Notes under the pieces: model-generated | What the model saw: only the letters and a program-made list of their open reading frames with translations | Told to the model about the DNA's origin: nothing | Databases searched by the model: none | Program-made: the position numbers and the translations under genes | Origin: a virus | Taxonomy: Duplodnaviria; Caudoviricetes | Strand: one strand, 5' to 3' | Virus record (IMG/VR): IMGVR_UViG_3300043391_000853 | Location: 85,818 to 149,817 of that record | DNA length: 64,000 bases | Shown here: positions 31,513 to 58,194 of the stretch, piece after piece | Layout of the letters: every line of letters starts with the position of its first letter | Numbering within the stretch: position 1 is the first letter of the stretch

Positions 31513-31929
31513 TTACGCGGTCAACTGCATGAAGTCGATTACCACATTGTCCATAACGGTAAGACTTTCTGCTTCCGCTGACACAGAGAACTGACTGACA
31601 ACTGCGCCTGTAGCAGTGAACTTTCCGCCGCCGCCTTTACAACCACCTAATTCAAAGGTGACGGTTGCAGGACTACATGCAGACCATCCATCGCCACCAT
31701 AAGATCCTCCTTCAAGGATCATGCGTTGAATGGTTGCTTGGCCCTGAGGCTGGGATCCCCATAAGAGAGCTTCTTTGTTACCTATAGTACGTCTACGGTT
31801 GATCTGTTGCTGGTAAGAGATCTGTACCTGGAGAGCAGTTGCGATGGGACCATTAAAGCTAATGATACACCTATCTGCTGTTACTGGTGCCTTGGGGTTT
31901 ACATCTGTGAATCCGAATAAATCTGCCAT
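31513..31929 (-). CDS. Tail tube protein
   Basis: 138 aa, LQVQISYQQQINRRRTIG...GQATIQR...VSQFSVS; own promoter, RBS and terminator; near the sheath gene. Confidence 0.8.
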   Translation of the reverse strand: MADLFGFTDVNPKAPVTADRCIISFNGPIATALQVQISYQQQINRRRTIGNKEALLWGSQPQGQATIQRMILEGGSYGGDGWSACSPATVTFELGGCKGGGGKFTATGAVVSQFSVSAEAESLTVMDNVVIDFMQLTA

Positions 31930-32003: not shown

Positions 32004-32207
32004 TTATTCTGCTAAACCTAACATCTTTACCATATCTTCAAAATTAGCATCTTCTCCTTTGGTGTATCTCACCCAGCCTTTACCATCACCAACAATCCTA
32101 TAGATTACATTGGGTCTGCCTTCGTCTGAGCTTATTAAGATACCTGTAGCTCTATCTGTATCCAATAATACCGGTTCTCTAAAATCTCCTGTAACTAGAA
32201 CTTTCAT
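32004..32207 (-). CDS. Small hypothetical protein
   Basis: 67-aa ORF with TAATG coupling to the upstream gene. Confidence 0.6.
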   Translation of the reverse strand: MKVLVTGDFREPVLLDTDRATGILISSDEGRPNVIYRIVGDGKGWVRYTKGEDANFEDMVKMLGLAE

Positions 32208-32443
32208 TATACTGCGATTTGTTTACTACCTGCAGTCATCTGCTGATCAATCAAATCTTGTTTAAGCAGCTCCGCCAGTACAGAAATGTCTTCATGGGAC
32301 TCATTCTGATCTTCTGGAAGCTCTTTAAACATAGTTTGAGCGGCAGGATGCTCCATTGCGCGCTTAAATACGTGGGCTGCTGCTTCTGGAGCCAGCCCAC
32401 ACTCTTCAGCGTATTTAATAAACCCTGCTTCGAGCGAAGTCAT
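32207..32443 (-). CDS. Small protein with the shared GFxKxAxExG module
   Basis: LEAGFIKYAEECGL...VFKRAM. Confidence 0.65.
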   Translation of the reverse strand: MTSLEAGFIKYAEECGLAPEAAAHVFKRAMEHPAAQTMFKELPEDQNESHEDISVLAELLKQDLIDQQMTAGSKQIAV

Positions 32444-32451
32444 ACTGCTAA

Positions 32452-35400
32452 CTATGCCACGAACAACGTCAGGTTGATGTAGTTGAGTGGGTAAGGTACG
32501 TTGAGGTTGACATCTACAATGATTCTATCTTTGTAGAAAGGATCAGATTCGATTCTGAGGATGTCGTCCTTAGGGGTAAAGCTAAGTAACTGGTTACCTG
32601 CTCTAGCTGTGTACGTATTGGTAGCCTTATCTCTCAGTACCCCAACAACAGTCTTATAGACTTCGTGGATAGTTCCTGGGTTGATGTTGTAACGACCAAT
32701 GTACGGGGCGAGTGCCGCTTTCAGTGTGTAGCTGATATTGTCGACGTTTGTAGTGATCGAATCTTCTCGAGTATTTAGACTGCGTTCATCTGTTGTTATC
32801 TGATGACGTACATACGCAGTAGCACCGATCACTTCCTGTGTAATGAGCCATATACCTTGTTCAGCCATCACGTTCAGGTCGTCTTGATTGAATTCAATTA
32901 CAACCTTACTCAAGTCGTCGACACCTAGGAATTCTGAGTTGGTCAATCCTTGATGCGGCACTACACCGGAACGTAACCCTGCTAATCCTGCAGCAGCGAA
33001 GTAACCTTGCTTGGTGACGCCACCGTACTTGTAGGTGTCAGGAAACACTACACGTACGCGACGGTTGTTGTAATCACCTCCGATATGTGCAATGTTGTTC
33101 GCTCTTTCTGACTTCGTATAGTTTCTGACCACTTCAACCTTGACCGGTACAGCGATCTGGGCTGTTAAGGTCTTGGTAATAGTCAGGGTTGTATTGGAGC
33201 GTACATGGTCTACAAAATACTCATCAGCGATAATGTCCCCCTTTGGGTCGAGTCTGAAGTTTAACTTAATGCTATCACCAGGTCTTACTCCGTCCTCTAC
33301 AAACTTGGCTCCTTCAATGGTGACCAACTTGAATTGTGTGTTTGATACCTGAGGGTCGTCTGTAATGGTGGCCTTGTAATTTTCACCATTTTCCTTTAGA
33401 GAGTACATTGTGCGTGTCTTCACGTCCTGTACAGACAACCAGGCGATTCTCCAGCGACCTACTTCCTTGGTGCTGTAGGCGTTCACATGTCCTACGACAG
33501 CGTCTTGAATGGTTCTATCAAAAGTAAGAGGTACGAAGCTATAAACTTTATCGCTCTTCTCTGCAATTTTGATTGCCTGGGTATAACCTACCAGGTCGTT
33601 CGTCTGCACACCCAAGAAGTATACAATTTGATTCGCTGAATTGAGTACTGCGTCGTACACACCTTGAGCCAAAGGGTTATCAGGGTGGATTACACCGAGC
33701 TTAGTTGTAACGTCAGCCAAACTTCTGAGAGAGTCGATGGCTACTACGTTGTCCTGTAGTAGGTCACGATGTTCTACGAAAAGCTTGCCTGACTTAACAG
33801 GCAGGGTGACACTGTTTCCTTCTACCACAAGGGCCTGATCATTGATGGCGATTCCTGCCAAAATACCGATGTAGGAATCTTCCTGTACCCAGTTATATTT
33901 ATTGCTCTCGGAATAAAGATCTCTGAGCTGCGGAATCTCTACGGAAGGCTTCGTTAACAGCAACTTCGCGGTCTTGCCTGTAGAGGCCACCGTCAACATT
34001 AACGGAGGAAGGTTTTCGGAGAGTTCGACGGTGTGATATGCTCCTAATTTGGCTGCTGTTACAGGAATGTAATAAACGTCGCCGACGATCAATCCATCAT
34101 TATTGGAGCCTGTTGCGAAGGAAGCTCTCACTCCAAACTTACCTACATTGAATGATGTTGCAGAATAGGGCAACACGTCTGAAGGTGTATCGATGTCTGA
34201 AGCAGATACACGGAGCCTTGCGCAAGTGTCTGCGTTGTTTCCGTTGTAAAACTTACCTCCGCGCTCGACTACGATCTTATAGACCATATCCGATGGACCT
34301 GTGTATGTGCCGCTTGTTGTCGGTTCAACTTGAGCCGTAGGAGCAGTAACAGTTAGGGTCCATTGAGTACCTCTCACAAACGCAGTAACGTCTGAAAAGT
34401 CGAGGACGACTTCATTATCTCCTGTGGAGTCAACGTCTAGCAAATAATCGCCGCCTACTTCATCTAGAATGAGATCTGTTTGAGGGGCGAACGAACCGCT
34501 TTGAGACTCAACAGAGAAGGTTACGGATGCTTTACTGCTGGTGTTGTCGCTTGTGACTGTGATGGTGTAAACATCCGAAAAGACTCCTGTTGCAGCGTTT
34601 CCTTTGTACGCGGTACTAGGATTGGTGGGACTTCCTCCTGCGGTGCTTCCGGTGCCTCCTACATGTACGACAGCGTTGTTGTAATCTTCTGTTGCGAAGC
34701 CTACGTTACCTAGGTCGTTGTATACTCCACCGATGCGGAAGGTATATGTACCTGAGGACTTCACAGGAACAATGGTGTCGACCAGCAGCGTATGGCTGTC
34801 TACAAACCCTATGATTTTGCGTACACCCAGACCAGTGATCTGCAGGTATTTGCCTACAACCTCGTCCTTAACGAAGGTGGCCGAAGCCGAAGTGAATCTA
34901 TTCACCGTAGCGTGACCGACTCCGTCTGCTTTAAAAAAGTCTCCCGTCGACAGCTCGACCTCTGCACCTATAGTGGATGCAAGATCAGAGTTCTCGCGGT
35001 ACGTATCTGCAACAAGAGCAGTCACTCGTGCTCTGAAGGTCATATCAAGGTCGTCAACAACCTCGATGATATCTCCTACAGCAACATCACGCTTGGATAA
35101 AAACGCTGTAGAGCGCTCGAAGCCGTTACCTGTCTTGAGTAGAACCTCAGGAAATCTCAAGCGATTTTGAATTGTGTTACCGGATTCCCCTACAACAGTC
35201 TCTACACCGGCATCCTCATTGGTTGCATCGCCAAGAGCGACAAGAGGGAAATACTGCGCTTCGACAGACTCCATGTATACCTTGGTATAGGATTGGTCAA
35301 CATCGCCGCCTGTAGCTACATGAGGGAAGTCATAGCGTACACCTGTGTACTGGCTACTATTCAGAGTAATACTGGCCCCTGTAGGAGAGTAGTTATTGGC

Positions 35401-35577
35401 AGCATCTAAAGCTATACCATCGAGCGTACCCACCATAGTCAGAGCTTTTTCACTAGGCTCGGAATAGCGCCTGAGCGAAAACTGAGGGCCTATGATGAAG
35501 GCTGGTAACGGGAACTCGGCGTAAACCGGTACCTGAAGGAACTCTTGCTGAATTAATACTCTGGGTGTGATGTACAT
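32452..35577 (-). CDS. Tail sheath protein with large inserted domains
   Basis: MYITPRVLIQQ...PAFIIGP start; C-terminal AAAGLAGLRSG...GLTN, VRHQIT, EDSITTNVDNI, YIGRYNI, VPYPLNYINLTL. Confidence 0.9.
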   Translation of the reverse strand: MYITPRVLIQQEFLQVPVYAEFPLPAFIIGPQFSLRRYSEPSEKALTMVGTLDGIALDAANNYSPTGASITLNSSQYTGVRYDFPHVATGGDVDQSYTKVYMESVEAQYFPLVALGDATNEDAGVETVVGESGNTIQNRLRFPEVLLKTGNGFERSTAFLSKRDVAVGDIIEVVDDLDMTFRARVTALVADTYRENSDLASTIGAEVELSTGDFFKADGVGHATVNRFTSASATFVKDEVVGKYLQITGLGVRKIIGFVDSHTLLVDTIVPVKSSGTYTFRIGGVYNDLGNVGFATEDYNNAVVHVGGTGSTAGGSPTNPSTAYKGNAATGVFSDVYTITVTSDNTSSKASVTFSVESQSGSFAPQTDLILDEVGGDYLLDVDSTGDNEVVLDFSDVTAFVRGTQWTLTVTAPTAQVEPTTSGTYTGPSDMVYKIVVERGGKFYNGNNADTCARLRVSASDIDTPSDVLPYSATSFNVGKFGVRASFATGSNNDGLIVGDVYYIPVTAAKLGAYHTVELSENLPPLMLTVASTGKTAKLLLTKPSVEIPQLRDLYSESNKYNWVQEDSYIGILAGIAINDQALVVEGNSVTLPVKSGKLFVEHRDLLQDNVVAIDSLRSLADVTTKLGVIHPDNPLAQGVYDAVLNSANQIVYFLGVQTNDLVGYTQAIKIAEKSDKVYSFVPLTFDRTIQDAVVGHVNAYSTKEVGRWRIAWLSVQDVKTRTMYSLKENGENYKATITDDPQVSNTQFKLVTIEGAKFVEDGVRPGDSIKLNFRLDPKGDIIADEYFVDHVRSNTTLTITKTLTAQIAVPVKVEVVRNYTKSERANNIAHIGGDYNNRRVRVVFPDTYKYGGVTKQGYFAAAGLAGLRSGVVPHQGLTNSEFLGVDDLSKVVIEFNQDDLNVMAEQGIWLITQEVIGATAYVRHQITTDERSLNTREDSITTNVDNISYTLKAALAPYIGRYNINPGTIHEVYKTVVGVLRDKATNTYTARAGNQLLSFTPKDDILRIESDPFYKDRIIVDVNLNVPYPLNYINLTLFVA

Positions 35578-35619
35578 AGTCTTGTTTTCTCCTGTGTATA
35601 CTCTATCTAGTCTTGTTTA

Positions 35620-35648
35620 ATTTTAAATTAAATTTAAGCTGTCTGCAA
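35620..35648 (-). promoter_or_regulatory. Sigma70-like promoter of the sheath gene
   Basis: TTGCAG-N17-TAAAAT; AGGAG RBS downstream. Confidence 0.65.
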
Positions 35649-35668
35649 CATTTTTTAACCTTTTTTTG

Positions 35669-36364
35669 TTAGTTTATAAAAGCGGACTCTAGGCAGCCTG
35701 TAAATACTGAGTATGTTACTGTCTTAAGTTTGAGGTCGTCTCCCTTAACTACAGTACCCATATCAAAAGCAGCTTCAAGCAGAACATTAACTACAAAGTG
35801 ATCTTTACTCTCCAAGTATAGTGTAGGTTGTCCTAGGTTTACCAGCTTAAATTGACGAAAGCAAAAGTCGTTTCTGATATTTTCCTGATGATACAGAAAT
35901 ATCTTGAAGATATACTCTGCAAGTTGCTCGGCAAAGCCTACATTTGTACCTACTACAGCAATGTTTAGAGGTAAGCGTATAATGCTGTTTTTTGTCTTTT
36001 CTGATTCTTTGACATTGATACCTACCATTTGATTGAGTGTAGGAAAACCGAAAGCTGCCTCTCCTCTGGAGACATATATGCCTGGCCTTTTTTGAATTAC
36101 ATCATCCTTGTAGTGATATGCGATCTGTAACGAGATTCCTGTAACCAGCTCATCGGGGTCATACACTTGTGTGAACCTGTACCCTAGGGACTGAGGGGTA
36201 TTTGCTATCATGTAGTTCTTTATTACCTCATAACAGATGTTCTGCACCGTCCAGGGAGTAAGAACAAGCACTCTCTCATCTCTCTCCTCAATAGCTCTAT
36301 TTTCTGCAGATACGAAGGCAGTATCAGGATAGTTGCAATATAGATCTCTAGGGTCTTGTGTCAT
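35669..36364 (-). CDS. Tail terminator/completion protein
   Basis: KRPGIYVSRG and AEQLAEYIF motifs; directly upstream of the sheath gene. Confidence 0.55.
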   Translation of the reverse strand: MTQDPRDLYCNYPDTAFVSAENRAIEERDERVLVLTPWTVQNICYEVIKNYMIANTPQSLGYRFTQVYDPDELVTGISLQIAYHYKDDVIQKRPGIYVSRGEAAFGFPTLNQMVGINVKESEKTKNSIIRLPLNIAVVGTNVGFAEQLAEYIFKIFLYHQENIRNDFCFRQFKLVNLGQPTLYLESKDHFVVNVLLEAAFDMGTVVKGDDLKLKTVTYSVFTGCLESAFIN

Positions 36365-36373
36365 AGTGTGAAA

Positions 36374-37198
36374 TTATAACAGGGCAGGTATAGGTATAGA
36401 ATACGCTGTATCTGTAGGAGGAATCAGATTCAAGTTAGCCTTCTGTATAAGGGTAATGTTGGTGCCTGGAAATTGCTTGGCGTTTCTAGACTGTATACTA
36501 TAGCGGTAGCCGTCCTTTGCTTCGCATACAATATCTCTGACCTCTATTATAGGGTAGCCTGGCATACGTACGATTTGGGTGTAGTTCTCTTTTACCCCTA
36601 TACCCTGCTGATCCAGCTGTTTGTCCTGCTGCCCTTGTTCGGTGTAAAAAACACAAGGTACAGGCGCATAGTAACCTCCGTCCACCCCTACACCGTAATC
36701 TTCATGTTTAATGTCAGCTATAGGTACACCTGATACAGGGTCTATGTTCTGGTTAGTTATAACATTACTTTGCTTACCTATACTCTTTCTCCTGAGTAGC
36801 CATGCTTCTGTTCCTGCATACCTAGCTAGAAGTATTTCCTTTCTTAGGACTTCTGCAGCCATTGCGTATTTGCGTTGATCGTGTCTTGACGATCCGAAGA
36901 TCACTGGAGTTGAGTAATACTTCCTGTTGTCTGATGTTTGTAGGCCTATACGATAGGAATAGTTGGCTGCCCATGATTGCTTTATCTTGGTGTCGTCGAC
37001 CACAAAAAATACGTCACCAAGATCATTCTTGGCTGCAAGCAATTCAGAAAAATCTGAAGTTGCGGAGATCTCTAATGAGAAATTGTAAGGCCTAACGCCA
37101 TTGAAAAATGGATCTAGCTTCCATTGTATAAAATGCCCTGCGTCCCAATTGGGAATAACGTCCACACGTTTAAAGGCTTTTTTTGTACTATTAAGCAT
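36374..37198 (-). CDS. Neck/head-closure protein
   Basis: GTEAWLLRRK...GGYYAP...PIIEVRDIVCE...RY pattern; between head and tail genes. Confidence 0.55.
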   Translation of the reverse strand: MLNSTKKAFKRVDVIPNWDAGHFIQWKLDPFFNGVRPYNFSLEISATSDFSELLAAKNDLGDVFFVVDDTKIKQSWAANYSYRIGLQTSDNRKYYSTPVIFGSSRHDQRKYAMAAEVLRKEILLARYAGTEAWLLRRKSIGKQSNVITNQNIDPVSGVPIADIKHEDYGVGVDGGYYAPVPCVFYTEQGQQDKQLDQQGIGVKENYTQIVRMPGYPIIEVRDIVCEAKDGYRYSIQSRNAKQFPGTNITLIQKANLNLIPPTDTAYSIPIPALL

Positions 37199-37392
37199 TA
37201 ATGTTTATGTGGTTTAGATGGGTCTTCATCTTTCTTGTGTCCTCCGTGCAGAAGACTGTTAATCATCTTTTTAGTTTTATGCAGCGCCAGCTTGATTTTA
37301 ACTCTAGCTATAAAGAATGGTCTATGCCTACATAACTCTAACTCCGCCATGACCCTTTTAGACGCTCCTATTAAGTCTTCTGGTGAGGGCAT
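37198..37392 (-). CDS. Small basic hypothetical protein
   Basis: 64-aa ORF filling the gap, coupled to the next gene. Confidence 0.5.
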   Translation of the reverse strand: MPSPEDLIGASKRVMAELELCRHRPFFIARVKIKLALHKTKKMINSLLHGGHKKDEDPSKPHKH

Positions 37393-37395
37393 AAA

Positions 37396-37842
37396 TTAAT
37401 AGCGCCTCCTGTAAATGTATTCGGAATATTTGGTTCCATAGACTTGGGCAATGTTCTGATTCATTTTAATTTGTTGCCCTAGCTCTTTGAAGTCCTGTTG
37501 CATGGCTTGTGCTAGAGACATGAATATTTGAGCTTTGTCCTTATCGTTGACCTGTACACCGTCAGCTGAATAACTTAATTGATTGGCTGCCTCATTAATT
37601 GCCCCTGATCTTAAAAGGTAGGACGCTGCCCCTAGTAGCAACAATGATCTGAACGGGAATTCTTCCACAGAGTACATGACACCTGTAGGGGGATTCATGA
37701 GGTTATAGTAATCCACCGTATTGATCATGGCTTGCTCGATCATCTCCGTGGTGAATCTAATCCCTAAAAGTAATGGATTAAGCTCCTTCCTATCTTGAAG
37801 GAACAGCCTAATTTCTTCGCTGGTAAGAATTGGTGTAGCCAT
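37396..37842 (-). CDS. Head-tail adaptor/neck protein
   Basis: EEIRLFLQD...LLLLGAASYLL...QLSYSADGVQV helical adaptor pattern downstream of the capsid gene. Confidence 0.6.
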   Translation of the reverse strand: MATPILTSEEIRLFLQDRKELNPLLLGIRFTTEMIEQAMINTVDYYNLMNPPTGVMYSVEEFPFRSLLLLGAASYLLRSGAINEAANQLSYSADGVQVNDKDKAQIFMSLAQAMQQDFKELGQQIKMNQNIAQVYGTKYSEYIYRRRY

Positions 37843-37847
37843 CTTAA

Positions 37848-38075
37848 TTAGAACTTTATCTGCTGTAGTGGTTTGCTTGTGTTTGTGACTGGCTTAGCTC
37901 CTGTGGAAGCTCCTGGGGTGTTCTGGGAAACTGCAGGATTATTCAATACACCTGTCTGCGATACGCGGGCTTCGTTTTGTCCGGTTCCCGGTTGTTGGTC
38001 CACAGGTGCAGAGTTGTACATTGCAGATTTTTGTATATAGCGCTGAAACATGTGCAGGATATTTTCGTTACTCAT
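37848..38075 (-). CDS. Small low-complexity protein with KxA site
   Basis: YIQKSAM followed by a Q/P/T-rich tail; has its own promoter. Confidence 0.55.
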   Translation of the reverse strand: MSNENILHMFQRYIQKSAMYNSAPVDQQPGTGQNEARVSQTGVLNNPAVSQNTPGASTGAKPVTNTSKPLQQIKF

Positions 38076-38082
38076 ACTTTAT

Positions 38083-38111
38083 ATTATAAAGCGAAGCGGT
38101 CGACTTATCAA
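38083..38111 (-). promoter_or_regulatory. Sigma70-like promoter, probably leaderless
   Basis: TTGATA-N17-TATAAT; ATG 7 nt after the -10. Confidence 0.7.
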
Positions 38112-38128
38112 GGTCGTTATATACAAAC

Positions 38129-38155
38129 AAAAAGGGGACCCGAAGGTCCCCTTTT
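38129..38155 (-). terminator. Intrinsic terminator after the major capsid gene
   Basis: Minus strand AAAAGGGGACC-TTCG-GGTCCCCTTTTT, with a C(UUCG)G tetraloop. Confidence 0.9.
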
Positions 38156-38177
38156 ATTATCTGCTTTCTGCTTTGGG

Positions 38178-39137
38178 TTAGCCGTTGAAGTCGACCCTCA
38201 CAACACCCTTCACGTTGCCGATGGCAAGCGAGAGGTTCATGTACTGGAAGTACTCGAGGAAGTAGGCTTCGTTCTTCATGAACACTGTGAGCGGCTGCAG
38301 TCTGTAGTACTTGCCGAAGAATTCTTCGGAAGAGAACAGGTAGATGACGCCGTCAGGTACGAGATCACGCTTGATGGTGTAGACAGGCTTCACACCCAAG
38401 AGAGTCTTGGAAGGAAGACCATTGACCCACATTTCCTGAGCGAGATCGCCGCCAACTTCACTACGGCTCATCTTGACGAAGTCGTCAGCCGTAACGTTGT
38501 TCATGAGCATCACACCCTTGGTTTCGCCGCCATCTGGCTGCGCAGGACCGAAGGGTACTCTGAGCCGCTTGATGACCTTGAATGCTTCAGCGACGTTCTC
38601 GCGAGTGATACCACCAGAGATGGTAACATTCTGAGGAAGACCGAGACCGTTCAGGGTGTTGGCTGTGTTGACAGTACCGATAATGCTGTCCACCTTGTTG
38701 ATGAAACGCGTATCGATTTCAGTGGCGATGTCCTTGGTGGAGAGCTCCAACATGATCGCACGGATGTCGTAATCGTAGCTTCTGAGCTGGTCGATATCCT
38801 TGTTGTACTTCGGACTCGTAATACGGGTGAAGTAGGAAGGATAACGAGTTCCATTGAACTGGAACATGTCAGGCACAACGCCGAGAGGGATAGTTACAGC
38901 AGGAGCTGTATCAGGCTCACGATCATTCCACTTAACAAGAAGCTCAGGATTCTCAGCCTTGTCGAGGTCATCATTGCTGATGTCGATAGGGGTGATAATC
39001 TTCTCAGTGAAGCTTTCTTCACGGAGTTTATTCCGAGTAAAAGACTGCGCGGACACCGCGGCCTTCTTTTCTTCGCCAGCCTTAACCATTTCAACGAATG
39101 TGTCGTTGAATACTCTCTGATTTGCAATTTTTTCCAT
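38178..39137 (-). CDS. Major capsid protein (HK97 fold)
   Basis: 319 aa; KLREESF, RITSPKYNKDIDQLRSYDYDI...KDIATEIDTRF, LLGVKPV, LSLAIGNVKGVVRVDF; AGGAGG RBS, strong codon bias, strong terminator. Confidence 0.85.
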   Translation of the reverse strand: MEKIANQRVFNDTFVEMVKAGEEKKAAVSAQSFTRNKLREESFTEKIITPIDISNDDLDKAENPELLVKWNDREPDTAPAVTIPLGVVPDMFQFNGTRYPSYFTRITSPKYNKDIDQLRSYDYDIRAIMLELSTKDIATEIDTRFINKVDSIIGTVNTANTLNGLGLPQNVTISGGITRENVAEAFKVIKRLRVPFGPAQPDGGETKGVMLMNNVTADDFVKMSRSEVGGDLAQEMWVNGLPSKTLLGVKPVYTIKRDLVPDGVIYLFSSEEFFGKYYRLQPLTVFMKNEAYFLEYFQYMNLSLAIGNVKGVVRVDFNG

Positions 39138-39160
39138 AATGTTATATTCCTCCTAGTTAA

Positions 39161-39718
39161 TTAGATGGCGAGCTTGATACAGACGACAGTTGCGTCAGTC
39201 TGGTACTGAACACCGTTAAGTGTTGCAGTGACCTTGCCTGGAAGGGACCTGGAGGCTTCCACAACTTGTCCGATGATCTTCTGTCCAGTGGTGGCGGAGG
39301 TAGGACCTCCTGTCTGCGTAACCACAGCGCCGGGATCGGCTACAATAACAAGGTTACCGTTAACGTCGGCACTGACATACTTGCCTGGAACGAACCCTGC
39401 TGACCCAGCTCCTGTGGAGCCGCCTGCAGTGTTTGTGAACTTGTCTGTCTCGATGACGCTTGCACCGTCGAGGGCGTAAACACCAATCTTACCGGATTCG
39501 ATAACGTCTCCAGCAGATTGACTGTTGATAGCGAATCCGTAGATCGCTGAGCCGTCGGCAGCTTCTGTGTCATTGGCTGCGAAGCCCTTATAGACTTTGC
39601 CGTCTGCCTGAATACGTACTACATGACCGGCTTCGATGCCTGTTACACCGGAACCAGGGGCAGCTACATAGTTTACTTGATGCAAACTAAGAGCGGGGCC
39701 TTTCTTGAAATTAATCAT
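39161..39718 (-). CDS. Capsid decoration/cement protein
   Basis: Gly-rich beta protein directly upstream of the capsid gene with AGGAG RBS; GHVVRI...GFAIN...GKYVSADVNGNL...IIGQV pattern. Confidence 0.65.
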   Translation of the reverse strand: MINFKKGPALSLHQVNYVAAPGSGVTGIEAGHVVRIQADGKVYKGFAANDTEAADGSAIYGFAINSQSAGDVIESGKIGVYALDGASVIETDKFTNTAGGSTGAGSAGFVPGKYVSADVNGNLVIVADPGAVVTQTGGPTSATTGQKIIGQVVEASRSLPGKVTATLNGVQYQTDATVVCIKLAI

Positions 39719-39835
39719 AATAAGTTACTCCTATTTATTTGTTGTTGATTTTGATTGGGTTATTACCCGTGTTGTTTTGCACCCCGATTGCCGATCAAGG
39801 CTGTTTCGGAAATGGTCCACGAAAGTTATATTAAT

Positions 39836-39864
39836 ATTGTCGCTAATACGTAGTACCAAGTCAA
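39836..39864 (-). promoter_or_regulatory. Sigma70-like promoter of the decoration/capsid operon
   Basis: TTGACT-N17-GACAAT, followed by a leader of about 110 nt. Confidence 0.5.
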
Positions 39865-39876
39865 CGATATTTTAAA

Positions 39877-40491
39877 TTATTTTTTAGCCTGCTTAGAAGG
39901 CTTGCTCTTCCTGGCGGCTGGCGCGGGCTCTTGCTCAGGTGCGGGTTCGTCTGAAGACCTGTCTACGCGACGACCTATCATTCCTCCTAAACCTCTACCC
40001 AGTACAGCTCCACCTGCAGCCATGAGGGGGTTGCGTGTAATCCCTCCACCCACTAAGCCTAACAATGTTCCTAGAGATTGTCCTCTCGATTGATGTGTGT
40101 CGGCGTCTAATTTGTTTTCCGCTATACGCTTACGAATTTCTAACTCATCCGGGGCTGGAGCGATACGCTCCTTGGGTCCTCTGTGATCTAGATAACTACC
40201 ATATGTGCGACCTACTCCAGACCCAACCATGGCTCCGAAGGGTATTGTTAACCCCATACCTGGACGTCCCCGCTTGGCTGCCAATGCAGCTAATCCTCCA
40301 ACAATTCCACCTATTCCTGTGCCTGCTGTGCGATAACTGTTGTTGGTGTAGTCGTCTTCAGCTTGCTGCTGCTCAGCTAAATAATCTTCGTAACCTTTAC
40401 CTGCATACTTTAAAAGATCAGGACTAGGTGTATAGCCGTGTTCCATTGCTCTCTTTACGAATCCTTCGATATATGCTTGTTGTGTGTTCAT
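39877..40491 (-). CDS. Putative internal head/ejection protein: shared module plus glycine zippers
   Basis: YIEGFVKRAMEHGY...LLKYAG; GTGIGGIVGGLA, GAMVGSGVG, GTLLGLVGG, GGAVLGRGLGGMIG. Confidence 0.6.
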   Translation of the reverse strand: MNTQQAYIEGFVKRAMEHGYTPSPDLLKYAGKGYEDYLAEQQQAEDDYTNNSYRTAGTGIGGIVGGLAALAAKRGRPGMGLTIPFGAMVGSGVGRTYGSYLDHRGPKERIAPAPDELEIRKRIAENKLDADTHQSRGQSLGTLLGLVGGGITRNPLMAAGGAVLGRGLGGMIGRRVDRSSDEPAPEQEPAPAARKSKPSKQAKK

Positions 40492-40492
40492 A

Positions 40493-40885
40493 CTAGTCTT
40501 CTAAAAGATTGTAATTACTGTCGTAGCCAAAAGCTCTGCGCATCACAGGATCTTCCGCATGGTTGGATGCTTTGACTGTAGCTACTTTACCCATATAAGC
40601 TACGTCTGCAGCGTTACACACACGTTCTACGACTTTCGCCAGGTACTCGACGTCTTCTCTGGCTTTCTTTACGAATAGTGCCTTTTCATCTTCATCGTTG
40701 ATGAAATCTGCACTGTACATAGCTTCTGCAGCCTTCTTGAGTGCGTTATCCAAAGATCTGTCGCTGGCGACTTTTTCTTCTGCCTGTTGGCTTTGAAGGG
40801 TAGTGACCTGCTGCTTAAGCTCTGATATCTCAGATAAAGCGACTTTAACAAAATTTTCAATCTTATGTAGCGCCTGTTTGGTCAT
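40493..40885 (-). CDS. Scaffold/core-like coiled-coil protein, KxA-rich
   Basis: KQA, KVA (x3), KKA (x2) and KAA in 130 aa. Confidence 0.6.
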   Translation of the reverse strand: MTKQALHKIENFVKVALSEISELKQQVTTLQSQQAEEKVASDRSLDNALKKAAEAMYSADFINDEDEKALFVKKAREDVEYLAKVVERVCNAADVAYMGKVATVKASNHAEDPVMRRAFGYDSNYNLLED

Positions 40886-41018
40886 GTTTAGCTTCCTCTA
40901 AATGTACTAAGCTTTGAATATACTTGAGCACTTTGTGTTTGTCTTCGTCACTTAAGTGCTCTAAAGCTGCTATAGCCTGCCGCTCTACAGAATACTGCTC
41001 TGGAGAGTCGGCAGGCAT
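40863..41018 (-). CDS. Small 51-aa protein missing from ORF track
   Basis: Manual translation MPADSPEQYSVERQAIAALEHLSDEDKHKVLKYIQSLVHLEEAKHDQTGAT fills the gap. Confidence 0.5.
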   Translation of the reverse strand: MPADSPEQYSVERQAIAALEHLSDEDKHKVLKYIQSLVHLEEAKHDQTGAT

Positions 41019-41041
41019 ATAACGTAATAAAACTGCAGCTA

Positions 41042-41998
41042 CTAGTCTTGGGTGTTCGAGTATGCGACTTCAGCCTTAAGCTTGTTCAAGACTGTTTCCG
41101 CTACAGAAGAGGCGAGCTTCTCTTGCACTTCCTGTGCGGTTTTTTCTGCCTCCACCTGGAGGAAGAAGTTTTCGTACTCGGCAACCTTGGCGGCAAGCTT
41201 TTCATTCGTCTCAAGCGCTTCCTGCAAAGCGGCCTGCTTTAACACTTCGTCAAAGTATTCGGCTCCGGCTTGCTCGGCAGCCTGCTTTTCATACTCTTCC
41301 TGCTCAGCTGCTTCCTTTTCTACGTGCTGCAGATCTTCTGCAGCTTCAGCGATCAAAAGATCGAAATCTCTACGTCCGGCTTCCTTGAACATCTCGAGCT
41401 CCTCTGCGGCTTCAGCTTCCTTTTGGAAGTCTTCTTCGTAGTCTTCGCTGTAGTCGTCACCGGCTGCCTTGAGGAGAGCAGCACAAAACTGGCGACCCAA
41501 CTCATAAGAGGCTACCTTCGCAGCCAATTCTTCTACCTGAGCCTTCTTGGCCCCAGTCAAAGGCTCAGCTTCGTCAGAAGAACCCTTCTGAGAATAGTCT
41601 TGCTTGTTGTTCTCAGGCTTGATGCTGTTCTTGTCAGTCTTTTCCTTGTCGTCGCCCACGCTCTCAGACCTGACATCACCTGGCTTGCCAGAAACACTGT
41701 CCTGTGCGTTGGCTTGCTTACGGATAAGATCGAGAATTTCGGCACCCAGATCGTTGGCTGTCTTCGCCTTAGCGAGAGGTTCAGAACCGTCATCAGAAGG
41801 CTTCTGGTGGTATCCTTGAGCGACGTTTTCCGGTCCTACGGAATTCTTGTTATGTGACTCATGTTCGTCACCAACGCTGACGGACCTGACGTCGCCGCCT
41901 GGAGCTCCAGAGATATTCTTCTGGGCGTCTTCTGCTTGCTTCTTCACCATGGAATGAAGCTGATTGAGTACTTCTGCGTGTTTTGTCAACTTAGCCAT
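41042..41998 (-). CDS. Prohead scaffold/core protein
   Basis: Acidic helical protein between protease and capsid genes; AGGAG RBS; 16 KxA motifs; internal ~60-aa duplication. Confidence 0.7.
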   Translation of the reverse strand: MAKLTKHAEVLNQLHSMVKKQAEDAQKNISGAPGGDVRSVSVGDEHESHNKNSVGPENVAQGYHQKPSDDGSEPLAKAKTANDLGAEILDLIRKQANAQDSVSGKPGDVRSESVGDDKEKTDKNSIKPENNKQDYSQKGSSDEAEPLTGAKKAQVEELAAKVASYELGRQFCAALLKAAGDDYSEDYEEDFQKEAEAAEELEMFKEAGRRDFDLLIAEAAEDLQHVEKEAAEQEEYEKQAAEQAGAEYFDEVLKQAALQEALETNEKLAAKVAEYENFFLQVEAEKTAQEVQEKLASSVAETVLNKLKAEVAYSNTQD

Positions 41999-42047
41999 AT
42001 TTTTCTCCTAATTCTTTAAGTGTTAATTGTTTATGTGCTGTATGGAA

Positions 42048-43337
42048 TTACTTCTTCTTTGAGTCTTTATCTTTTGAGCCTTTGCTTTCTGAGTCTTTGC
42101 TGTCTTTACGTGAAGCACGTCCAGCAGCTACGCCAGCGAGACCGGCAGCGGTAGCGCTGAGCTTGCCTCTGTGTTCGTATACCTTTTTGCCTACACTGTC
42201 AGCCACTCCTGCGGCAGCTACCGAAGGGCCAGCGAGATGCTTTTTTGCAAAGCGCTTGACCGGTTCAGCGATATACTTTTCAGCTAAATCTTTTGCTCCG
42301 GAAACCTTGCTCAAGGTTTCATGTACAATCTGAACTGCTTCATCTTCACTAAAACCATACTCAATGGCACTCTTAAAGATCCCTTCGCAGTAAGCGGCAG
42401 TTTTTGCCTCGTCTGCGTTTTCCTTCTTTTTACCTGACAGTGCATATGCTCCTGCTCCTGTAGCAGCTAGACCTGCTGCGGCGATTCCTGCTGCCCGACC
42501 GGGCCTTGTTCGGATGTACTGACCTGCGCGCCTGGCACGCTCTCCTGCTTGTCTTGCAAAGTTGCCTGCAGCTTCAGAGGCTCTGGAGGTGGCTGTCGCC
42601 TTACCTCCACGAACCAAGGTTCCGCTAGATTGTGGAGCTGATTTTGGAGCTGATTTTGGAGCTGATTGCGCTTTAGTGTCGTTTGAAGATCTTTCTACAA
42701 GAGCCAAGGCTCTGCTGGATTTTGGGGCTTCTTGTGCTTTAGCTGCTGCCTCTCTGGCTCTTCTTGCTTTACGTCCGCCGGCGGCAGTTTTCGATAAAGC
42801 TTCGACAGTTTCCGTAAGTGCCTGGTCGTACAAATCGACAGCCTGCTTAACGCTGATACCATTTACAAGCGCCTGGTTAATGAATCCTTCGATGTACGAG
42901 GCAGATTTAATCATATCGAAGGCGGCGGCTTTTTCTGGAGGCATCCCTGGAGCAGTCATCGCTTCTGGGTTTTCTCCTAGATGTCCTTGAATCGCCTGCG
43001 CAAGATGGGCTACATCTTCTCCTCCTTCGTGTTGCTCCGGGTTCTGCATTTCTCCGGACAATGCCTGTGCGAGTTGCTCTAGTTCTTCAGGAGACAACTG
43101 AGCCAGTAATTCCTCTACGCCTCCACCTTCTCCACCTTCATGCTCACCCTCACCCATCCCGTACTCAGACCCACCCATAGCATGCTCAAGCATTTCTGTA
43201 TCTGGAGACTCTGCAGCTTCGTGACCTTCATCTTCTGGCATCCCTCCGGGCATTCCTCCGGGCATTTCTCCGGGCATTTCAGCAGATTGTTTATTGAGGT
43301 AGTGAGCTATCACTGCGTTTACGTATGGGTTAGTCAT
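42048..43337 (-). CDS. Putative internal head polyprotein
   Basis: Acidic M/P/G/E/H-rich N-part, two copies of the shared module, each followed by a basic Gly/Ala-rich segment; MPGx and SAPK micro-repeats. Confidence 0.55.
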   Translation of the reverse strand: MTNPYVNAVIAHYLNKQSAEMPGEMPGGMPGGMPEDEGHEAAESPDTEMLEHAMGGSEYGMGEGEHEGGEGGGVEELLAQLSPEELEQLAQALSGEMQNPEQHEGGEDVAHLAQAIQGHLGENPEAMTAPGMPPEKAAAFDMIKSASYIEGFINQALVNGISVKQAVDLYDQALTETVEALSKTAAGGRKARRAREAAAKAQEAPKSSRALALVERSSNDTKAQSAPKSAPKSAPQSSGTLVRGGKATATSRASEAAGNFARQAGERARRAGQYIRTRPGRAAGIAAAGLAATGAGAYALSGKKKENADEAKTAAYCEGIFKSAIEYGFSEDEAVQIVHETLSKVSGAKDLAEKYIAEPVKRFAKKHLAGPSVAAAGVADSVGKKVYEHRGKLSATAAGLAGVAAGRASRKDSKDSESKGSKDKDSKKK

Positions 43338-43360
43338 AGTTGGTTCCTGTATATTTTTAA

Positions 43361-43389
43361 ATGTTAACTTAAATTTTCTGCTTGTCCAA
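43361..43389 (-). promoter_or_regulatory. Sigma70-like promoter
   Basis: TTGGAC-N17-TAACAT; AGGA RBS downstream. Confidence 0.55.
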
Positions 43390-43396
43390 GTCTTTT

Positions 43397-44845
43397 TTAC
43401 CTATTCTGTATTAAAACATTAAAAATAGTGTCTTCGTCAAGCTTGTTTTGAGAATCCATATATCTTAATGCTGCCAGCTTATATGCTGTGTATTGTTTTG
43501 CTAGTGTTTTAACTGCTGCTTCTTTTGAGAGTTCTTTTTCGTTTGTTTTTCTGTGCAACTTACCTGTGGGAAGTTTTTTGATTATAGTGATCTTCATTAT
43601 CCTTCCGTGTACAGGTTTGTCAAATAGAGAGTGGTCGTCGAAAAGGTTTTTAACCATACTCAACAGTCCTTTGGGTAGAATGTCAGATCCCGATGGCTCA
43701 AACTTATCGTCATTAATCTCCTGGTCTCCGTCCTCCTCCATGTCAGAAAACATTGACGGTAAATGCTTTTTGACTTTACTGGATAATTCTTCCGCATTGG
43801 ATCCGATTGACTTGCCTCCAAAAGAATATTTGATAAAGTCTTTTGGAGAAAACACTATACCGTTGTCTGCTAGTGCACGTAACAACTTAGAGGGTTCATG
43901 TTTTCGCAGTTCTTCGATAACATCGTCTGGTATGTCGTCAGCATGGTTGATCTTTGATTTCTGCTCCACGTCATACTTGTCCTTCGATGTTTTGGGTCCG
44001 TCTTGGATCACTCCTTCGAGGTGCTTTTCGATGGCTGCTAACTTTTTAACCAGGCTACGCTTTTCTGCAGCATGCTTACTAATGCGTAAAAGATTGTCCT
44101 CGTCGTCAGGTACCACAAAGCCTGGATAGATGGTTTTGTAGTCGTTGGCAGTTTTAATGTATCCGTTATCGGCTGCAAGCTTTAGGCTCATACCGATTCT
44201 ATCGGCAGGTCTACCTACAATAGATAACTCGAACCACTTGGGGTCGATATTGTCCATGCTGCACATCTCACCTTGTTTGTTAATTTCTCCAAGCTTCTTA
44301 GGTATGTGCTCGCAACGGTGATTGTCTGTTTTAGCTTCGTGACCGCACCAGGTGCATTTATCGTAAGCCACCTTCGCAGCCATACTCACGTTGATCTGCT
44401 TGCCTTCTGCAAGCTTCTGGATTTCTTCAGCGCACTTGTCGTTATCCATACCAATAACGAGCTCAATACGCTTCATCTTATGATTGTAGGTAGCAGCCTT
44501 AATGTTTCCATACTTAGGGTCGGTAGGCTTGTTTTTATGATGCCTATTAAGTGCCCGTCCATCGTATTTATCATCCTTCTTGCTGCCGGATTTAATGAAG
44601 GTCTTATAGTGCTTTAAACAGGAAGCTTCCTTAAAGATGTCTCCATTTCTGTTGGCTCCTGTGCCTTCGTAGGCTCCTAGTGCAATTACAAGTGCGTCTG
44701 TTTGTCCTGCAGTCTTCTCAACGCGAAGTTCAGAGTTATCAGAACCTGCCTTGGTTAATGTGTTAACATTATGAATCAGCTGTACTGGGTCAATGTCCCA
44801 ATTCCAGTCGTCTGTAGCACTAAATTTAATTAATCCTTTATACAT
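43397..44845 (-). CDS. Prohead maturation protease (HK97/assemblin-type) with CxxC...CxH insert and C-terminal extension
   Basis: NRNGDIF, LNRHHKN (His), VSMAAKVAYDKCTWCGH...CEHI (Ser and Zn ligands), FELSIVGRPAD. Confidence 0.85.
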   Translation of the reverse strand: MYKGLIKFSATDDWNWDIDPVQLIHNVNTLTKAGSDNSELRVEKTAGQTDALVIALGAYEGTGANRNGDIFKEASCLKHYKTFIKSGSKKDDKYDGRALNRHHKNKPTDPKYGNIKAATYNHKMKRIELVIGMDNDKCAEEIQKLAEGKQINVSMAAKVAYDKCTWCGHEAKTDNHRCEHIPKKLGEINKQGEMCSMDNIDPKWFELSIVGRPADRIGMSLKLAADNGYIKTANDYKTIYPGFVVPDDEDNLLRISKHAAEKRSLVKKLAAIEKHLEGVIQDGPKTSKDKYDVEQKSKINHADDIPDDVIEELRKHEPSKLLRALADNGIVFSPKDFIKYSFGGKSIGSNAEELSSKVKKHLPSMFSDMEEDGDQEINDDKFEPSGSDILPKGLLSMVKNLFDDHSLFDKPVHGRIMKITIIKKLPTGKLHRKTNEKELSKEAAVKTLAKQYTAYKLAALRYMDSQNKLDEDTIFNVLIQNR

Positions 44846-44847
44846 AT

Positions 44848-46992
44848 TTATTGTACTTGGTTGGCGGCATCAAACTCTCCTCTTGACTGGAGTAATGTCT
44901 TTTTCCAGTCTTTTTTCTGGTCGTCTGAGAAAGCGCGGTTTTGTATCGCTTTAATTAGATGGTATAACCCTGTTCCTCCTGCGGCTATGGCTCCTCCTGC
45001 GATTACAGGGGTCCTATACCTCGACCAGGCCTTTCTGAGATTGGAACCCTGAAGGGCTTTGTTTTGAAGGTCTTTTAAAGTACTGTCTAGAAAAGCCTTC
45101 CCTTTTGGGTCGCGGGCAGCGCTGAAGTCTCCTCCTTGGCGATACTCATGGACGATTTTCTTGATCAGATCCTCATCAAATCCTGTGTGAGCTCCAGTTA
45201 TTTTGTTTTTTTCAAAAATATCTCCAATCTCCGCATGCATGTTTGGAGCTATGTGATCGGCAATAAAGTCTCCTGCTCCCCAAAACTTGCCTCTTAACTT
45301 ATGTAGCGACTCACCTATTTGTCCCTTCAAGCCTCCCTTTGCGGAGGCGTTTTGCAGAGATTGATGCGCATCTGCGTATCCTCTAAGCTTCGCCATAGAG
45401 GGAGAACTTTTAGCCTTAGCAATTATTTTCTTTTTAAGCTCTGCCTCGTTAGGATGACCTGCGAGGCTGCGGTATTCCTCCAACAATCCTCCGGTTGTTG
45501 TGCCTTCAAGCTTGTCCAATATACCCAAGCGTTTTTCGACATTGCCGTCGAAATCTCCGAAAACTCGAGATATGTCAGGGCGGGCTCTTCCTGCAGGGTC
45601 CAAAAGCTCCGCTGAATTTGTCTTGTCAAATTTTCGATTACCTTCCCTCGCATCACTAGCATTTTGAATCTTTTTGGCGTTATCCCATCGGCGTAGAATA
45701 TCTGTGCCTATACCTCCCGCTGCTACTGCTGCACCAATCTCAGGAGATTTCCCTAGCAGGTCTGTTGCTACGGCTTGTGTAGGATGTTTGTCGTAAAACG
45801 TTTCTCCTGTGTTGCTTTTCAGTCCTGTCATATACTCAAGCCCTACTAAACCCTTTCTGACTTGATCTCTGAGTGCTTCAGTCCTGGCGACTTCATGTTT
45901 AGGTTGCGGGGAACTGTCCCCAGACGAAATTAGAGGGGATACGGCTCTGTACAAATCAGATTGTGTACCAGTGTTCGCGTCTTCTAAATCTTTCTTAAAT
46001 TGTGATAGTGCTGTTTTTTTCATATGTTCACTCTGTTTGATCACTTCCTGACCTTGAGGTTGGGGTTGAACGGCTGTGGTTGGAGGATAGGATATGTTGG
46101 GCGCAATATTAGATGGCTGAGGGGCGTTTGATGGTCGGATGGTATTGCGTGTGCGTCTTGTGCTAGGTTCTGGTCCACCCACGACGTTACCTTGAGCGTC
46201 AAACATTGTTCCCTGTGCCTCCTGTCTTTGACGATCATTAGCTCGGTTGTTCATCTGCTTAGCCAACTCACTATTGGCACTCAAATTATTGAAGACATCT
46301 CTACCTGTATTTATTGTATCGGTAACGAAGCCTATAGCTTGACCAGCTCCAGGCAGCATGGCTGTTGAGGCTGCTATCCCATCTAACCCTGCACCTATAT
46401 AATCGTTTCTGCCTAGTCTATCGACTGCGCTTGCTGCTGACGATGCTGCCATTAATGGTGGAACTAATTTATTGGCTGCAAAATTTGCGCCACGCATGAT
46501 AGGGTTTCTAGCTAGATTACCTGCCTGGTTGATCGCCCTGTTTGTGGCCCGCTCAATCGCAGGAGGTTTAATTAATTTGCTTGCTCCGTATGCGGCAGCT
46601 CCTCCACCTGCACTCAAGGCTGCGTTACCATATTCTCCATTCGCTAGATTAGTTGCTGCGTTAACCGCTCCTACTGCCGCTCCCCCTCTAAGTGCTCCTC
46701 TCGTTAGCATTTTTCCTACAGGCTTTAATGCCTGTGGTGTTAATGCCTGGGGTGTTATAGGTACCCTTCCTGTAAGTAAGGGACTATGCCTGTTTGCACC
46801 GTATTCTAGCGCCCCGAAAGCTGCGTCTGCGGCTGCCGGTACGTATTGTGGATCCCAATCAATATTTTCATCTCTATTTGTAACATTTTTGGCAGCATTC
46901 ATTGCGCCTCGTGCAGCTCCTAGGTAATTGACAGGACCAGGCAGTCCGGCAGCTAACTTGCTCAATATACTGTTACGATCAGGTAATCCCAT
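44848..46992 (-). CDS. Putative internal head/ejection protein with several Gly/Ala-rich hydrophobic segments
   Basis: LSKLAAG near the start, internal KKTAL; GGAAVGAV, GAGLDGIAA, IAGGAIAAGGTGLY. Confidence 0.5.
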   Translation of the reverse strand: MGLPDRNSILSKLAAGLPGPVNYLGAARGAMNAAKNVTNRDENIDWDPQYVPAAADAAFGALEYGANRHSPLLTGRVPITPQALTPQALKPVGKMLTRGALRGGAAVGAVNAATNLANGEYGNAALSAGGGAAAYGASKLIKPPAIERATNRAINQAGNLARNPIMRGANFAANKLVPPLMAASSAASAVDRLGRNDYIGAGLDGIAASTAMLPGAGQAIGFVTDTINTGRDVFNNLSANSELAKQMNNRANDRQRQEAQGTMFDAQGNVVGGPEPSTRRTRNTIRPSNAPQPSNIAPNISYPPTTAVQPQPQGQEVIKQSEHMKKTALSQFKKDLEDANTGTQSDLYRAVSPLISSGDSSPQPKHEVARTEALRDQVRKGLVGLEYMTGLKSNTGETFYDKHPTQAVATDLLGKSPEIGAAVAAGGIGTDILRRWDNAKKIQNASDAREGNRKFDKTNSAELLDPAGRARPDISRVFGDFDGNVEKRLGILDKLEGTTTGGLLEEYRSLAGHPNEAELKKKIIAKAKSSPSMAKLRGYADAHQSLQNASAKGGLKGQIGESLHKLRGKFWGAGDFIADHIAPNMHAEIGDIFEKNKITGAHTGFDEDLIKKIVHEYRQGGDFSAARDPKGKAFLDSTLKDLQNKALQGSNLRKAWSRYRTPVIAGGAIAAGGTGLYHLIKAIQNRAFSDDQKKDWKKTLLQSRGEFDAANQVQ

Positions 46993-47004
46993 AGGTATAA
47001 TGAG

Positions 47005-47370
47005 CTATTCAGGATATTGTTGCGGCGTGGGTTCAAACTTATTAGCTATACTGTCTGCAGCCATATTTATTGGGTGCGTCACTAGAGGCATCGCGCCAAA
47101 GTTAATTGCCGCACCACCTAAACTGAAAGGATTTCTTAACTTTTTATGTGTCCATCTAGCTGCATCTCCTACTGTTTTACGCATACCTGTAGCGTTGACG
47201 GGAGTACTTTTGGCTATACCCAGCAACGCTCTTCGTATTCCCATATCCCCTAGGATCATTCCACCGACTCTAATCGCTGTAGGCAAAAAGGCTTCCTTGG
47301 TGATGCCGTATTCCTCGGCTCTTTTCTGCATACCTGCCATGAAACATTGTTCGTATTCTTCAGGACTCAT
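47005..47370 (-). CDS. Small protein with the shared module plus a basic amphipathic segment
   Basis: FMAGMQKRAEEYGITKEAFL. Confidence 0.6.
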   Translation of the reverse strand: MSPEEYEQCFMAGMQKRAEEYGITKEAFLPTAIRVGGMILGDMGIRRALLGIAKSTPVNATGMRKTVGDAARWTHKKLRNPFSLGGAAINFGAMPLVTHPINMAADSIANKFEPTPQQYPE

Positions 47371-56577: not shown

Positions 56578-56978
56578 TATTTTTTAAGTTTTTTGATTAA
56601 GAGCTCGTAAAATGATGCCTGCTTTTGGTTTTGAGCATTATCACCAAACGACTGGGTCGTGGCCATATTCATATTCTTGTCCTTGGACCTTCCTGGAAGG
56701 AGCACATCCTCCTTTTCTTCTTCCAGCTTATTCATCACATCAAGCTCTTTAAACGCTCCTTCCATTATATCGCCTTCGGTATTGCTCTGCGTTTGCTGCT
56801 TCGAAGTGGACATGGTGACATCAGTGTCTTCCAGGTTTTCTTCTTCTCCGTTGTTTACGGTTGCTGTATCATTTAGATCTTGAGCAATCTTTCTTTTGAT
56901 GTAGCAGGCCAAGTCGTAGCTTTTCTCTCCTTTTTCAAAAGAGTTTAAATAAGCTGCAAGTTTTGTGAACTGTCCCAT
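56577..56978 (-). CDS. Acidic hypothetical protein with KxA motifs
   Basis: TKLAA, RKIAQ, QKQAS; TAATG coupling to the beta' C-half gene. Confidence 0.6.
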   Translation of the reverse strand: MGQFTKLAAYLNSFEKGEKSYDLACYIKRKIAQDLNDTATVNNGEEENLEDTDVTMSTSKQQTQSNTEGDIMEGAFKELDVMNKLEEEKEDVLLPGRSKDKNMNMATTQSFGDNAQNQKQASFYELLIKKLKK

Positions 56979-56990
56979 ATTATGTATAAA

Positions 56991-57932: not shown

Positions 57933-58135
57933 GTGGCGTTTTCCAGTTCTATTATTTTAAAAATATTTGCTTCTAGTTCTTTTTTAATCTCCGGCAATCT
58001 GCCTTGCTGAGAGGTTTTGCTTAATTCATGCAGGCCTTTTTCTAATTGGAGTATTTCATGCAAATATGTACGCATCTCAGCAATTTTTTCATCCTCGCTG
58101 AGATGTGTCCATATATTTTCATCAAGCATAACCAA
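57929..58135 (-). CDS. Small helical hypothetical protein
   Basis: About 66-68 aa; ATGA overlap with the next gene. Confidence 0.55.
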   Translation of the reverse strand: MVMLDENIWTHLSEDEKIAEMRTYLHEILQLEKGLHELSKTSQQGRLPEIKKELEANIFKIIELENAT

Positions 58136-58194
58136 AAAAAGGGTAGAGATAAAGACTATTGTTGCGTGTGTTGGCGATGCGCTGCAACTTACAG

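Follow-up and report, generated by a model that had tools for sequence, protein, structure and literature searches.

The stretch analysed here, called the window, forms the final 64,000 nucleotides of the Caudoviricetes record IMGVR_UViG_3300043391_000853, a single viral sequence of 149,817 bp for which CheckV gives a completeness of 76%. Its minus strand carries a set of structural operons, and several genes in these operons encode proteins that share a short module, which an earlier note on this DNA had taken for a possible capsid-targeting leader. Eight clear copies of this module were found in seven genes of the record, plus one degenerate copy. The five strings quoted in the earlier note were present in the translations of four minus-strand open reading frames, one of which holds two of them (Table 1). 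Searching the entire record in six frames with a regular expression returned these five copies, three more, and nothing elsewhere; the additional ones lie outside the window at the opposite end of the contig (genome positions 2-190, 198-1724 and 1768-1953; locus L001). All eight copies are in minus-strand open reading frames. The module is, however, larger than the 14 residues first noted, since alignment of the copies showed a conserved unit of about 32 residues, in which a second conserved helix follows the reported motif.

A hidden Markov model (HMM) built from the eight copies scored these copies at 48-61 bits and the next-best six-frame match at 8 bits, in a test that is circular. For a non-circular test a second HMM was built only from 222 foreign domains, none of them from this record. 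With this foreign-only HMM six copies reached 39-54 bits, and the reversed-sequence control stayed at or below 4.8 bits. The copies in the 78-aa and the 121-aa protein scored 13.9 bits (E about 0.004) and 13.5 bits (E about 0.007), respectively. Three of the five copies first reported are solid, whereas these two are divergent and were confirmed through their orthologues: the 78-aa protein has orthologues in four of four related genomes, which keep a clearer module and a K-x-A at the module end, and the 121-aa protein in two of four, with a clearer module and helix 1 kept.

In the 204-aa protein the module is followed by Gly-zipper segments (Pfam Gly-zipper_Omp, E 3.8e-5) and then a basic C-terminus; in the 429-aa protein a Gly/Ala-rich hydrophobic segment stands directly before module B. 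Over the first 48 nt the N-terminal copies of this record are 73-88% identical at the nucleotide level, and this shared start of the N-type modules could serve as a recombination handle for cargo shuffling. A 508-aa protein (genome 198-1724, minus strand) contains a complete N-type module, including its Met, at about residue 352. Ahead of it is a 350-residue domain with a Gly-rich loop reminiscent of kinases. The protein had no Pfam match and looks like a gene fusion that put cargo ahead of the module. The degenerate ninth copy lies outside the window, inside a protein of about 310 residues (genome 13581-14645, minus strand; E about 0.01-0.03) and has a Gly-zipper segment behind it.

When the profile of the eight copies was searched against 1.84 billion representative proteins, 551 clusters were matched at E ≤ 1e-3 and 98 at E ≤ 1e-10. 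The best matches and the record's own proteins together made up the 156 proteins analysed, 102 with a single copy and 54 with two or three; most of the latter resemble the 429-aa protein of the window. In 97 of the 102 single-copy proteins the module begins at residue 8 or earlier, as a rule at residue 3 or 4. All database members were labelled hypothetical. In Pfam no family covered the module in 71 members, the only matches being EF-hand and Gly-zipper families in the tails, and PHROGs gave no recurrent match to it. Against the PDB the module profile reached a best E of 0.15, Foldseek with the model of a 61-aa module protein a best E of 3.4, and an ESM Atlas look-up of the same protein returned no usable match. 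No copy was found in 50,697 cultured-phage records, nor, with a single strict peptide pattern, in one genome each of 185,579 prokaryote species; the module turned up only in viral or metagenomic DNA. Salmonella phage Arash and Vibrio phage D69, which share the protease and capsid protein described below, gave no module with the profile. Two short, specific motif strings had no occurrence in indexed papers. A SAP/HeH-like DNA-binding motif, which the helix-Gly-helix pattern might call to mind, was considered and rejected, as there was no Pfam match and the net charge is slightly acidic (mean -0.9).

What follows the module differs from protein to protein, as the earlier note had supposed in calling it portable: 94 tails behind N-terminal copies fell into 56 similarity groups, 39 of them singletons, and only 57 of 4371 tail pairs had any similarity, which leaves 98.7% of pairs unrelated. 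Ala, Gly and Pro are abundant in the tails, which are basic (median isoelectric point 9.7, 84% above 8.5); some contain Gly-zipper or EF-hand-like segments. A calcium-binding loop like that of EF-hands recurs directly behind the module and, in the multi-module protein, also between modules; Pfam EF-hand families matched 4 of 71 members, and the loop was seen in P0078, P0091, P0118, P0119, P0140 and the linkers of the alignment of the 429-aa family (A4). In several relatives a DUF3008-like N-terminal extension is followed by K-K-A and then the module (L005:11293-11649, L007:11783-12229, L008:10618-11385, L013:41-862).

One could object that there is no signal here, only an ordinary paralogous family with a constrained N-terminus or a chance resemblance between amphipathic helices. 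The nucleotide identity over the first 48 nt does indicate that common descent and recombination contribute. The number of clusters at both thresholds, the distance between the reversed control and the 13.5-54 bits of the copies, the unrelatedness of nearly all tail pairs and the fixed position at residue 3-4 nevertheless make this objection very improbable. The earlier note had itself named a known non-virion domain or random helices scoring equally well as grounds for giving up its proposal; no curated family matched, and reversed sequences scored far lower. The module is a real, new and so far unannotated domain family.

According to an AlphaFold2 prediction from a 71-row alignment, the module consists of a helix at residues 3-17, a four-residue turn at an invariant Gly and a second helix at residues 22-33, with predicted local distance difference test (pLDDT) values of 88-94 over the module. 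In the AlphaFold2 model of the 429-aa protein, residues 107-200, spanning two conserved helices and module A, had pLDDT 82-95 and module B 86-91; the remainder was low. Judging by the sequence pattern, the hydrophobic stripe of helix 1 is wider than helix 2 could cover, which would suggest a docking surface. A complex prediction of an N-type module with residues 100-146 of the 429-aa protein gave a score of 0.02 against a mark of 0.32 and speaks neither for nor against binding.

The module stands in a regular relation to the tripeptide pattern K-x-A. Within the 8 residues upstream, K-x-A was present in 107 of 117 internal copies, compared with 13.5% of background 8-mers from the same proteins, and in 101 of the 117 its register was identical, one residue ahead of the conserved Tyr. 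In the alignment of the 429-aa family, the Lys and Ala that directly precede each internal module hardly vary (K144/S145/A146; K312, A314). N-terminal copies have Met-Asn/Thr-Thr-Gln-Gln in place of this upstream K-x-A, so that the fold does not need it, and a cut there would turn every internal copy into an N-terminal one. The earlier note had also remarked on a second K-x-A after the motif. In 91% of N-terminal copies K-x-[A/S] was indeed found 23 residues after the conserved Tyr, exactly where similarity ends; 97% of internal copies have it 20-42 residues downstream, and in 100% of N-terminal copies a further K-x-[A/S] lies inside helix 1. This relation, with K-x-A in a fixed register before internal copies and K-x-A/S at the end of N-terminal ones, is new here.

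K-x-A is also frequent in proteins of the head region. Compared with within-protein shuffles, from which the expected counts of Table 1 were taken, it was in excess in five proteins, among them the protease and two scaffold-like proteins (Table 1). When all a-x-b pairs were scanned in these five, K-x-A came out on top with 65 occurrences versus 18.4 expected and a z of 10.9, inflated by the choice of the proteins for their high K-x-A rank; the runner-up had a z of 4.1. The specificity for spacing is unaffected by that choice, and the excess occurred at spacing 2 only. The next enriched patterns had a hydrophobic residue two positions before the Lys of K-x-A, and A-x-E reached a z of only 2.1 (28 versus 19.0). 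We regard hydrophobic-x-K-x-A as a candidate prohead-protease code, and the bracketing of the module by K-x-A would fit removal by that protease. As separate observations, K-x-A is strongly over-represented in the scaffold-like head proteins (window 36374-61188; genome 80985-82070), where Ser/Glu/Ala-Asp/Glu usually follows the Ala, and it occurs within the first 15 residues in 25 genes of the record, 12 of the 25 in the structural region of the window. The proteins with such an early K-x-A include the capsid protein, the portal candidate, the 714-aa and 487-aa proteins and an RNA polymerase piece.

In one alternative the module is not removed. It may be retained on mature virion-internal or ejected proteins as a docking or oligomerisation hairpin, with K-x-A cuts only splitting the units of a polyprotein; such a hairpin might fix the tails to one another or to the capsid wall, portal or tail lumen, or it might assemble in the host envelope after ejection. 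The hairpin is confidently predicted and has invariant charged and aromatic residues, and if cuts were made before the internal copies, each released unit would still begin with its module. The continuous high-confidence helical region that module A is predicted to form with the two preceding helices points the same way, as do the Gly-zipper segments, typical of membrane-active proteins, in many tails. The K-x-[A/S] that closes the great majority of N-terminal copies at the limit of similarity is more simply explained as an excision site, and we consider retention rather unlikely.

The window's structural genes give the module a definite neighbourhood. Conserved copies are found within the head and tail operons and adjoin the genes for the prohead protease, the scaffold-like proteins and the major capsid protein. 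The protease also had tblastn matches in Salmonella phage Arash (structural protein gp222), Vibrio phage D69 and Bacillus phage G (gp19). The 204-aa module gene begins 1 nt past the stop of the 130-aa scaffold-like gene, and the 121-aa module gene lies between the genes for an Ig-repeat protein and a 714-aa Gly-rich protein. Between the module genes and their upstream neighbours there are 1, 8 and 9 nt, too little to hold a separate promoter, and co-transcription with the structural genes is therefore most likely. No shared promoter motif emerged when the sequences ahead of module and head genes were searched by k-mers. Further members of the operons are RNA polymerase pieces, a 752-aa portal candidate and Gly-rich proteins.

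Table 1. Module copies and neighbouring structural proteins, with K-x-A counts for the five scanned proteins (positions are those of the window)
Feature	Position	Strand	Module gene	Evidence and remarks	K-x-A observed	K-x-A expected
Divergent module copy, N-terminus of 78-aa protein	32351-32443	minus	32207-32443	acidic tail		
Canonical N-terminal module of 204-aa protein	40390-40485	minus	39877-40491	foreign-only HMM 39 bits		
Internal module A of 429-aa protein	42813-42908	minus	42048-43337	foreign-only HMM 48.6 bits; K-S-A directly before		
Internal module B of 429-aa protein	42309-42404	minus	42048-43337	foreign-only HMM 41 bits; K-T-A directly before		
Divergent module copy near N-terminus of 121-aa protein	47260-47355	minus	47005-47370	hydrophobic tail behind		
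Prohead (head maturation) protease, 482 aa	43397-44845	minus		phrog_18299 'head maturation protease', E 3.7e-9	12	4.9
Scaffold-like protein, 318 aa, acidic, helical, K-x-A-rich	41042-41998	minus		K-x-A count	16	4.8
Scaffold-like protein, 130 aa, K-x-A-rich	40493-40885	minus		weak Phage_scaffold match, E 0.063	7	1.9
Major capsid protein, 319 aa	38178-39137	minus		tblastn vs annotated Arash major capsid protein: 27% identity, 97% of query, E 2e-25		
Sheath-like protein, 1041 aa	32452-35577	minus		weak Pfam match		
Tube-like gene	31513-31929	minus				
487-aa protein					15	5.2
355-aa protein upstream of the window					15	2.5

Two side observations concern the same strand. RNA polymerase beta/beta' pieces stand beside the portal candidate (window 54727-61188). 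Virion preparations of Arash, the nearest cultured relative, have RNA polymerase subunits among their most abundant detected proteins, and the neighbours of its protease homologue are virion-associated too (PMC10585845). Since Arash has no module, its proteome says nothing direct on the module. Many structural genes between window positions 31929 and 61188 have A/T-rich sequence upstream of their starts and no recognisable Shine-Dalgarno sequence, and a few have AGGAG; this may be a hint at the host group.

Five related IMG/VR records had 6-12 profile matches each. Four of them are genomes of 184-204 kb, 94-100% complete, with 9-12 module copies each. In the related records the four structural-module genes are found again with their order preserved, and the protein with two or three modules always adjoins the protease. 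Identity between genomes was 94-95% for the capsid protein and 72-79% for the protease, compared with 37-51% for the 78-aa and 29-34% for the 121-aa protein; the module proteins therefore evolve much faster than the particle. In one relative the prohead protease gene itself is interrupted in frame (G003:C1:169915-172470, the record behind L008): the stretches matching residues 1-173 and 162-482 are separated by about 1 kb and share a single open frame of 876 aa, and the interruption may be an intein or another in-frame insertion.

The related genomes also hold tandem arrays of 4-8 small genes with an N-terminal module, interspersed with HNH or other endonuclease genes; their counterpart in the present record is the three-gene group at the contig start. 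A Cys-rich endonuclease-like gene is conserved, with HNH genes, among these arrays (L001:1957-2484, L004:11311-11760, L005:10552-11001, L008:7988-8434).

The arrays bear on a function outside the virion, where the module would be a shared interaction domain by which phage proteins inside the cell are steered to a single target of host or phage, for instance the membrane, the lysis machinery, a chaperone or a protease, and its placement in the operons would be incidental. In the related genomes two holin-like membrane-protein genes stand immediately upstream of the arrays, and the short, disordered, fast-evolving tails resemble those of many host-takeover proteins. However, four module genes are syntenic inside head and tail operons and abut structural genes, the multi-module protein is always found beside the protease, and the bracketing by K-x-A links the module to a motif enriched in scaffold-like proteins. 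Such a function seems unlikely to us. An import tag for a phage nucleus was likewise considered and was rejected, as no chimallin homologue was found: the nuclear-shell protein gp054 of phiKZ had no match at E ≤ 1 in this record and two complete relatives, in a single-sequence search that is weak.

Tentatively, and at somewhat less than an even chance, we favour the module as a removable N-terminal leader that takes varied cargo into the virion, by analogy with the capsid-targeting sequence (CTS) of phage T4. A removable leader is the simplest model that fits the N-terminal position, the diversity of the tails, the placement of the genes and the bracketing by K-x-A; the diversity of the tails also parallels that of the internal proteins of T-even phages. 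In this model the helix-turn-helix of about 32 residues would be the common N-terminal leader of varied, fast-evolving proteins and would bring them to the assembling virion, most likely to the prohead core. The cargo would be mostly basic and disordered, or of a Gly-zipper membrane type. The 482-aa prohead protease would cut at hydrophobic-x-K-x-A before internal copies, inside the module and at its end, and the cargo would thereby be released. The 429-aa protein would be a polyprotein, in which an acidic scaffold-like domain is followed by two module-headed Gly/Ala-rich units with K-x-A-type sites between them. We infer incorporation into the virion, cleavage at K-x-A and a binding partner from the arrangement of the genes and motifs, and ejection of the cargo into the host would be the last step.

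Several observations weigh against a removable leader. The arrays of the related genomes sit between holin-like membrane-protein genes and fibre-like genes, away from the head genes, and one conserved copy, that of the 78-aa protein, lies between the sheath and tube genes. Some cargo precedes the module, as in the 508-aa protein and behind the DUF3008-like extensions. The module is confidently folded, very conserved and three times as long as a CTS of the T4 type, so it may act in the mature protein, and the K-x-A halfway along helix 1, which never varies in N-terminal copies, might just as well serve structure or binding. The selection of the scanned proteins, mentioned above, weakens the statistical case for a K-x-A code as well.

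The model can be stated more boldly. The folded 32-residue domain flanked by protease sites would then be the universal entry ticket for a large, fast-changing protein arsenal, which a lineage of uncultured phages of 150-200 kb would load into their capsids and eject into the host, and the conserved multi-module protein beside the protease would be a polyprotein cut by the head protease into units that each start with a module. On this view the module would be a packaging tag defined by its sequence and ready for use, and the hydrophobic-x-K-x-A code would be new for prohead proteases. We think this version possible, though doubtful.

Whatever its function, the module is a domain family of 551 clusters that lacks annotation and is called hypothetical in current databases. 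Should it be a packaging leader, an independent example of a portable tag for capsid targeting would stand beside the CTS of T4. Defined by a profile and with hundreds of natural cargo fusions, this tag would allow packaging rules to be read from sequence, and it would mark the proteins that an uncultured phage lineage probably ejects, among them candidate anti-defence or membrane-active factors. It would also predict the specificity of the protease (a cut after K-x-A) and a polyprotein route to internal proteins.

Among known systems the closest parallel is that of T4, whose CTS is a short peptide of about 10 residues, found on the internal proteins IPI-III and on Alt and removed by the prohead protease gp21. 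In both cases a conserved N-terminal leader heads diverse proteins of one phage, the cargo is often basic, and a prohead protease and scaffold-like proteins are encoded alongside; a short candidate cleavage motif of the type P3-x-P1 closes the leader. The internal proteins of T-even phages form a diverse set that has only the conserved CTS in common, by which they are directed into the scaffolding core (PMC3012670). The module differs in being a predicted folded helix-turn-helix of about 32 residues instead of a short peptide, in its candidate motif hydrophobic-x-K-x-A where T4 has L/I-x-E, and in its additional internal occurrence in a polyprotein-like protein. Packaging and cleavage have been demonstrated experimentally for T4 only.

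In giant phages the prohead protease cuts propeptides at a three-residue motif, and the propeptides hold several copies of this motif and are cut into pieces (PMC10052503). The substrates of SPN3US gp245 and phiKZ gp175 resemble the present case in that they belong to large myoviruses with RNA polymerase genes in the structural region and include paralogous families of ejection proteins, whose N-terminal propeptides are removed at a three-residue motif, as proposed here for K-x-A. The motif of SPN3US is, however, A-x-E, and its propeptides of 20-254 residues are not one shared portable module, whereas in the present lineage one domain family stands before dozens of tails that are unrelated to each other. 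A homologue of the phiKZ nuclear shell, looked for by a single-sequence search, was not found in the present lineage, unlike in phiKZ.

Cleavage after Ala is the rule in the scaffold proteins of herpesviruses. Their assemblin sites, (V/L)-x-A|S, are similar to the candidate sites here in the Ala at P1, the frequent Ser/Glu/Ala at P1' and the hydrophobic residue two positions before the Lys; a Lys at P3 would be specific to the present lineage. The protease itself had no detectable match to any solved structure when compared with PDB sequences. Cargo-loading peptides of encapsulins, too, are short portable tags that load varied cargo into a shell of the HK97 fold, as the module may do by analogy, but they are mostly C-terminal and unstructured, bind the shell protein directly and are not removed. 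The module would act like a CTS or a propeptide without being a member of either family, since it is a folded domain of 32 residues, is associated with K-x-A rather than L/I-x-E or A-x-E, and occurs internally too.

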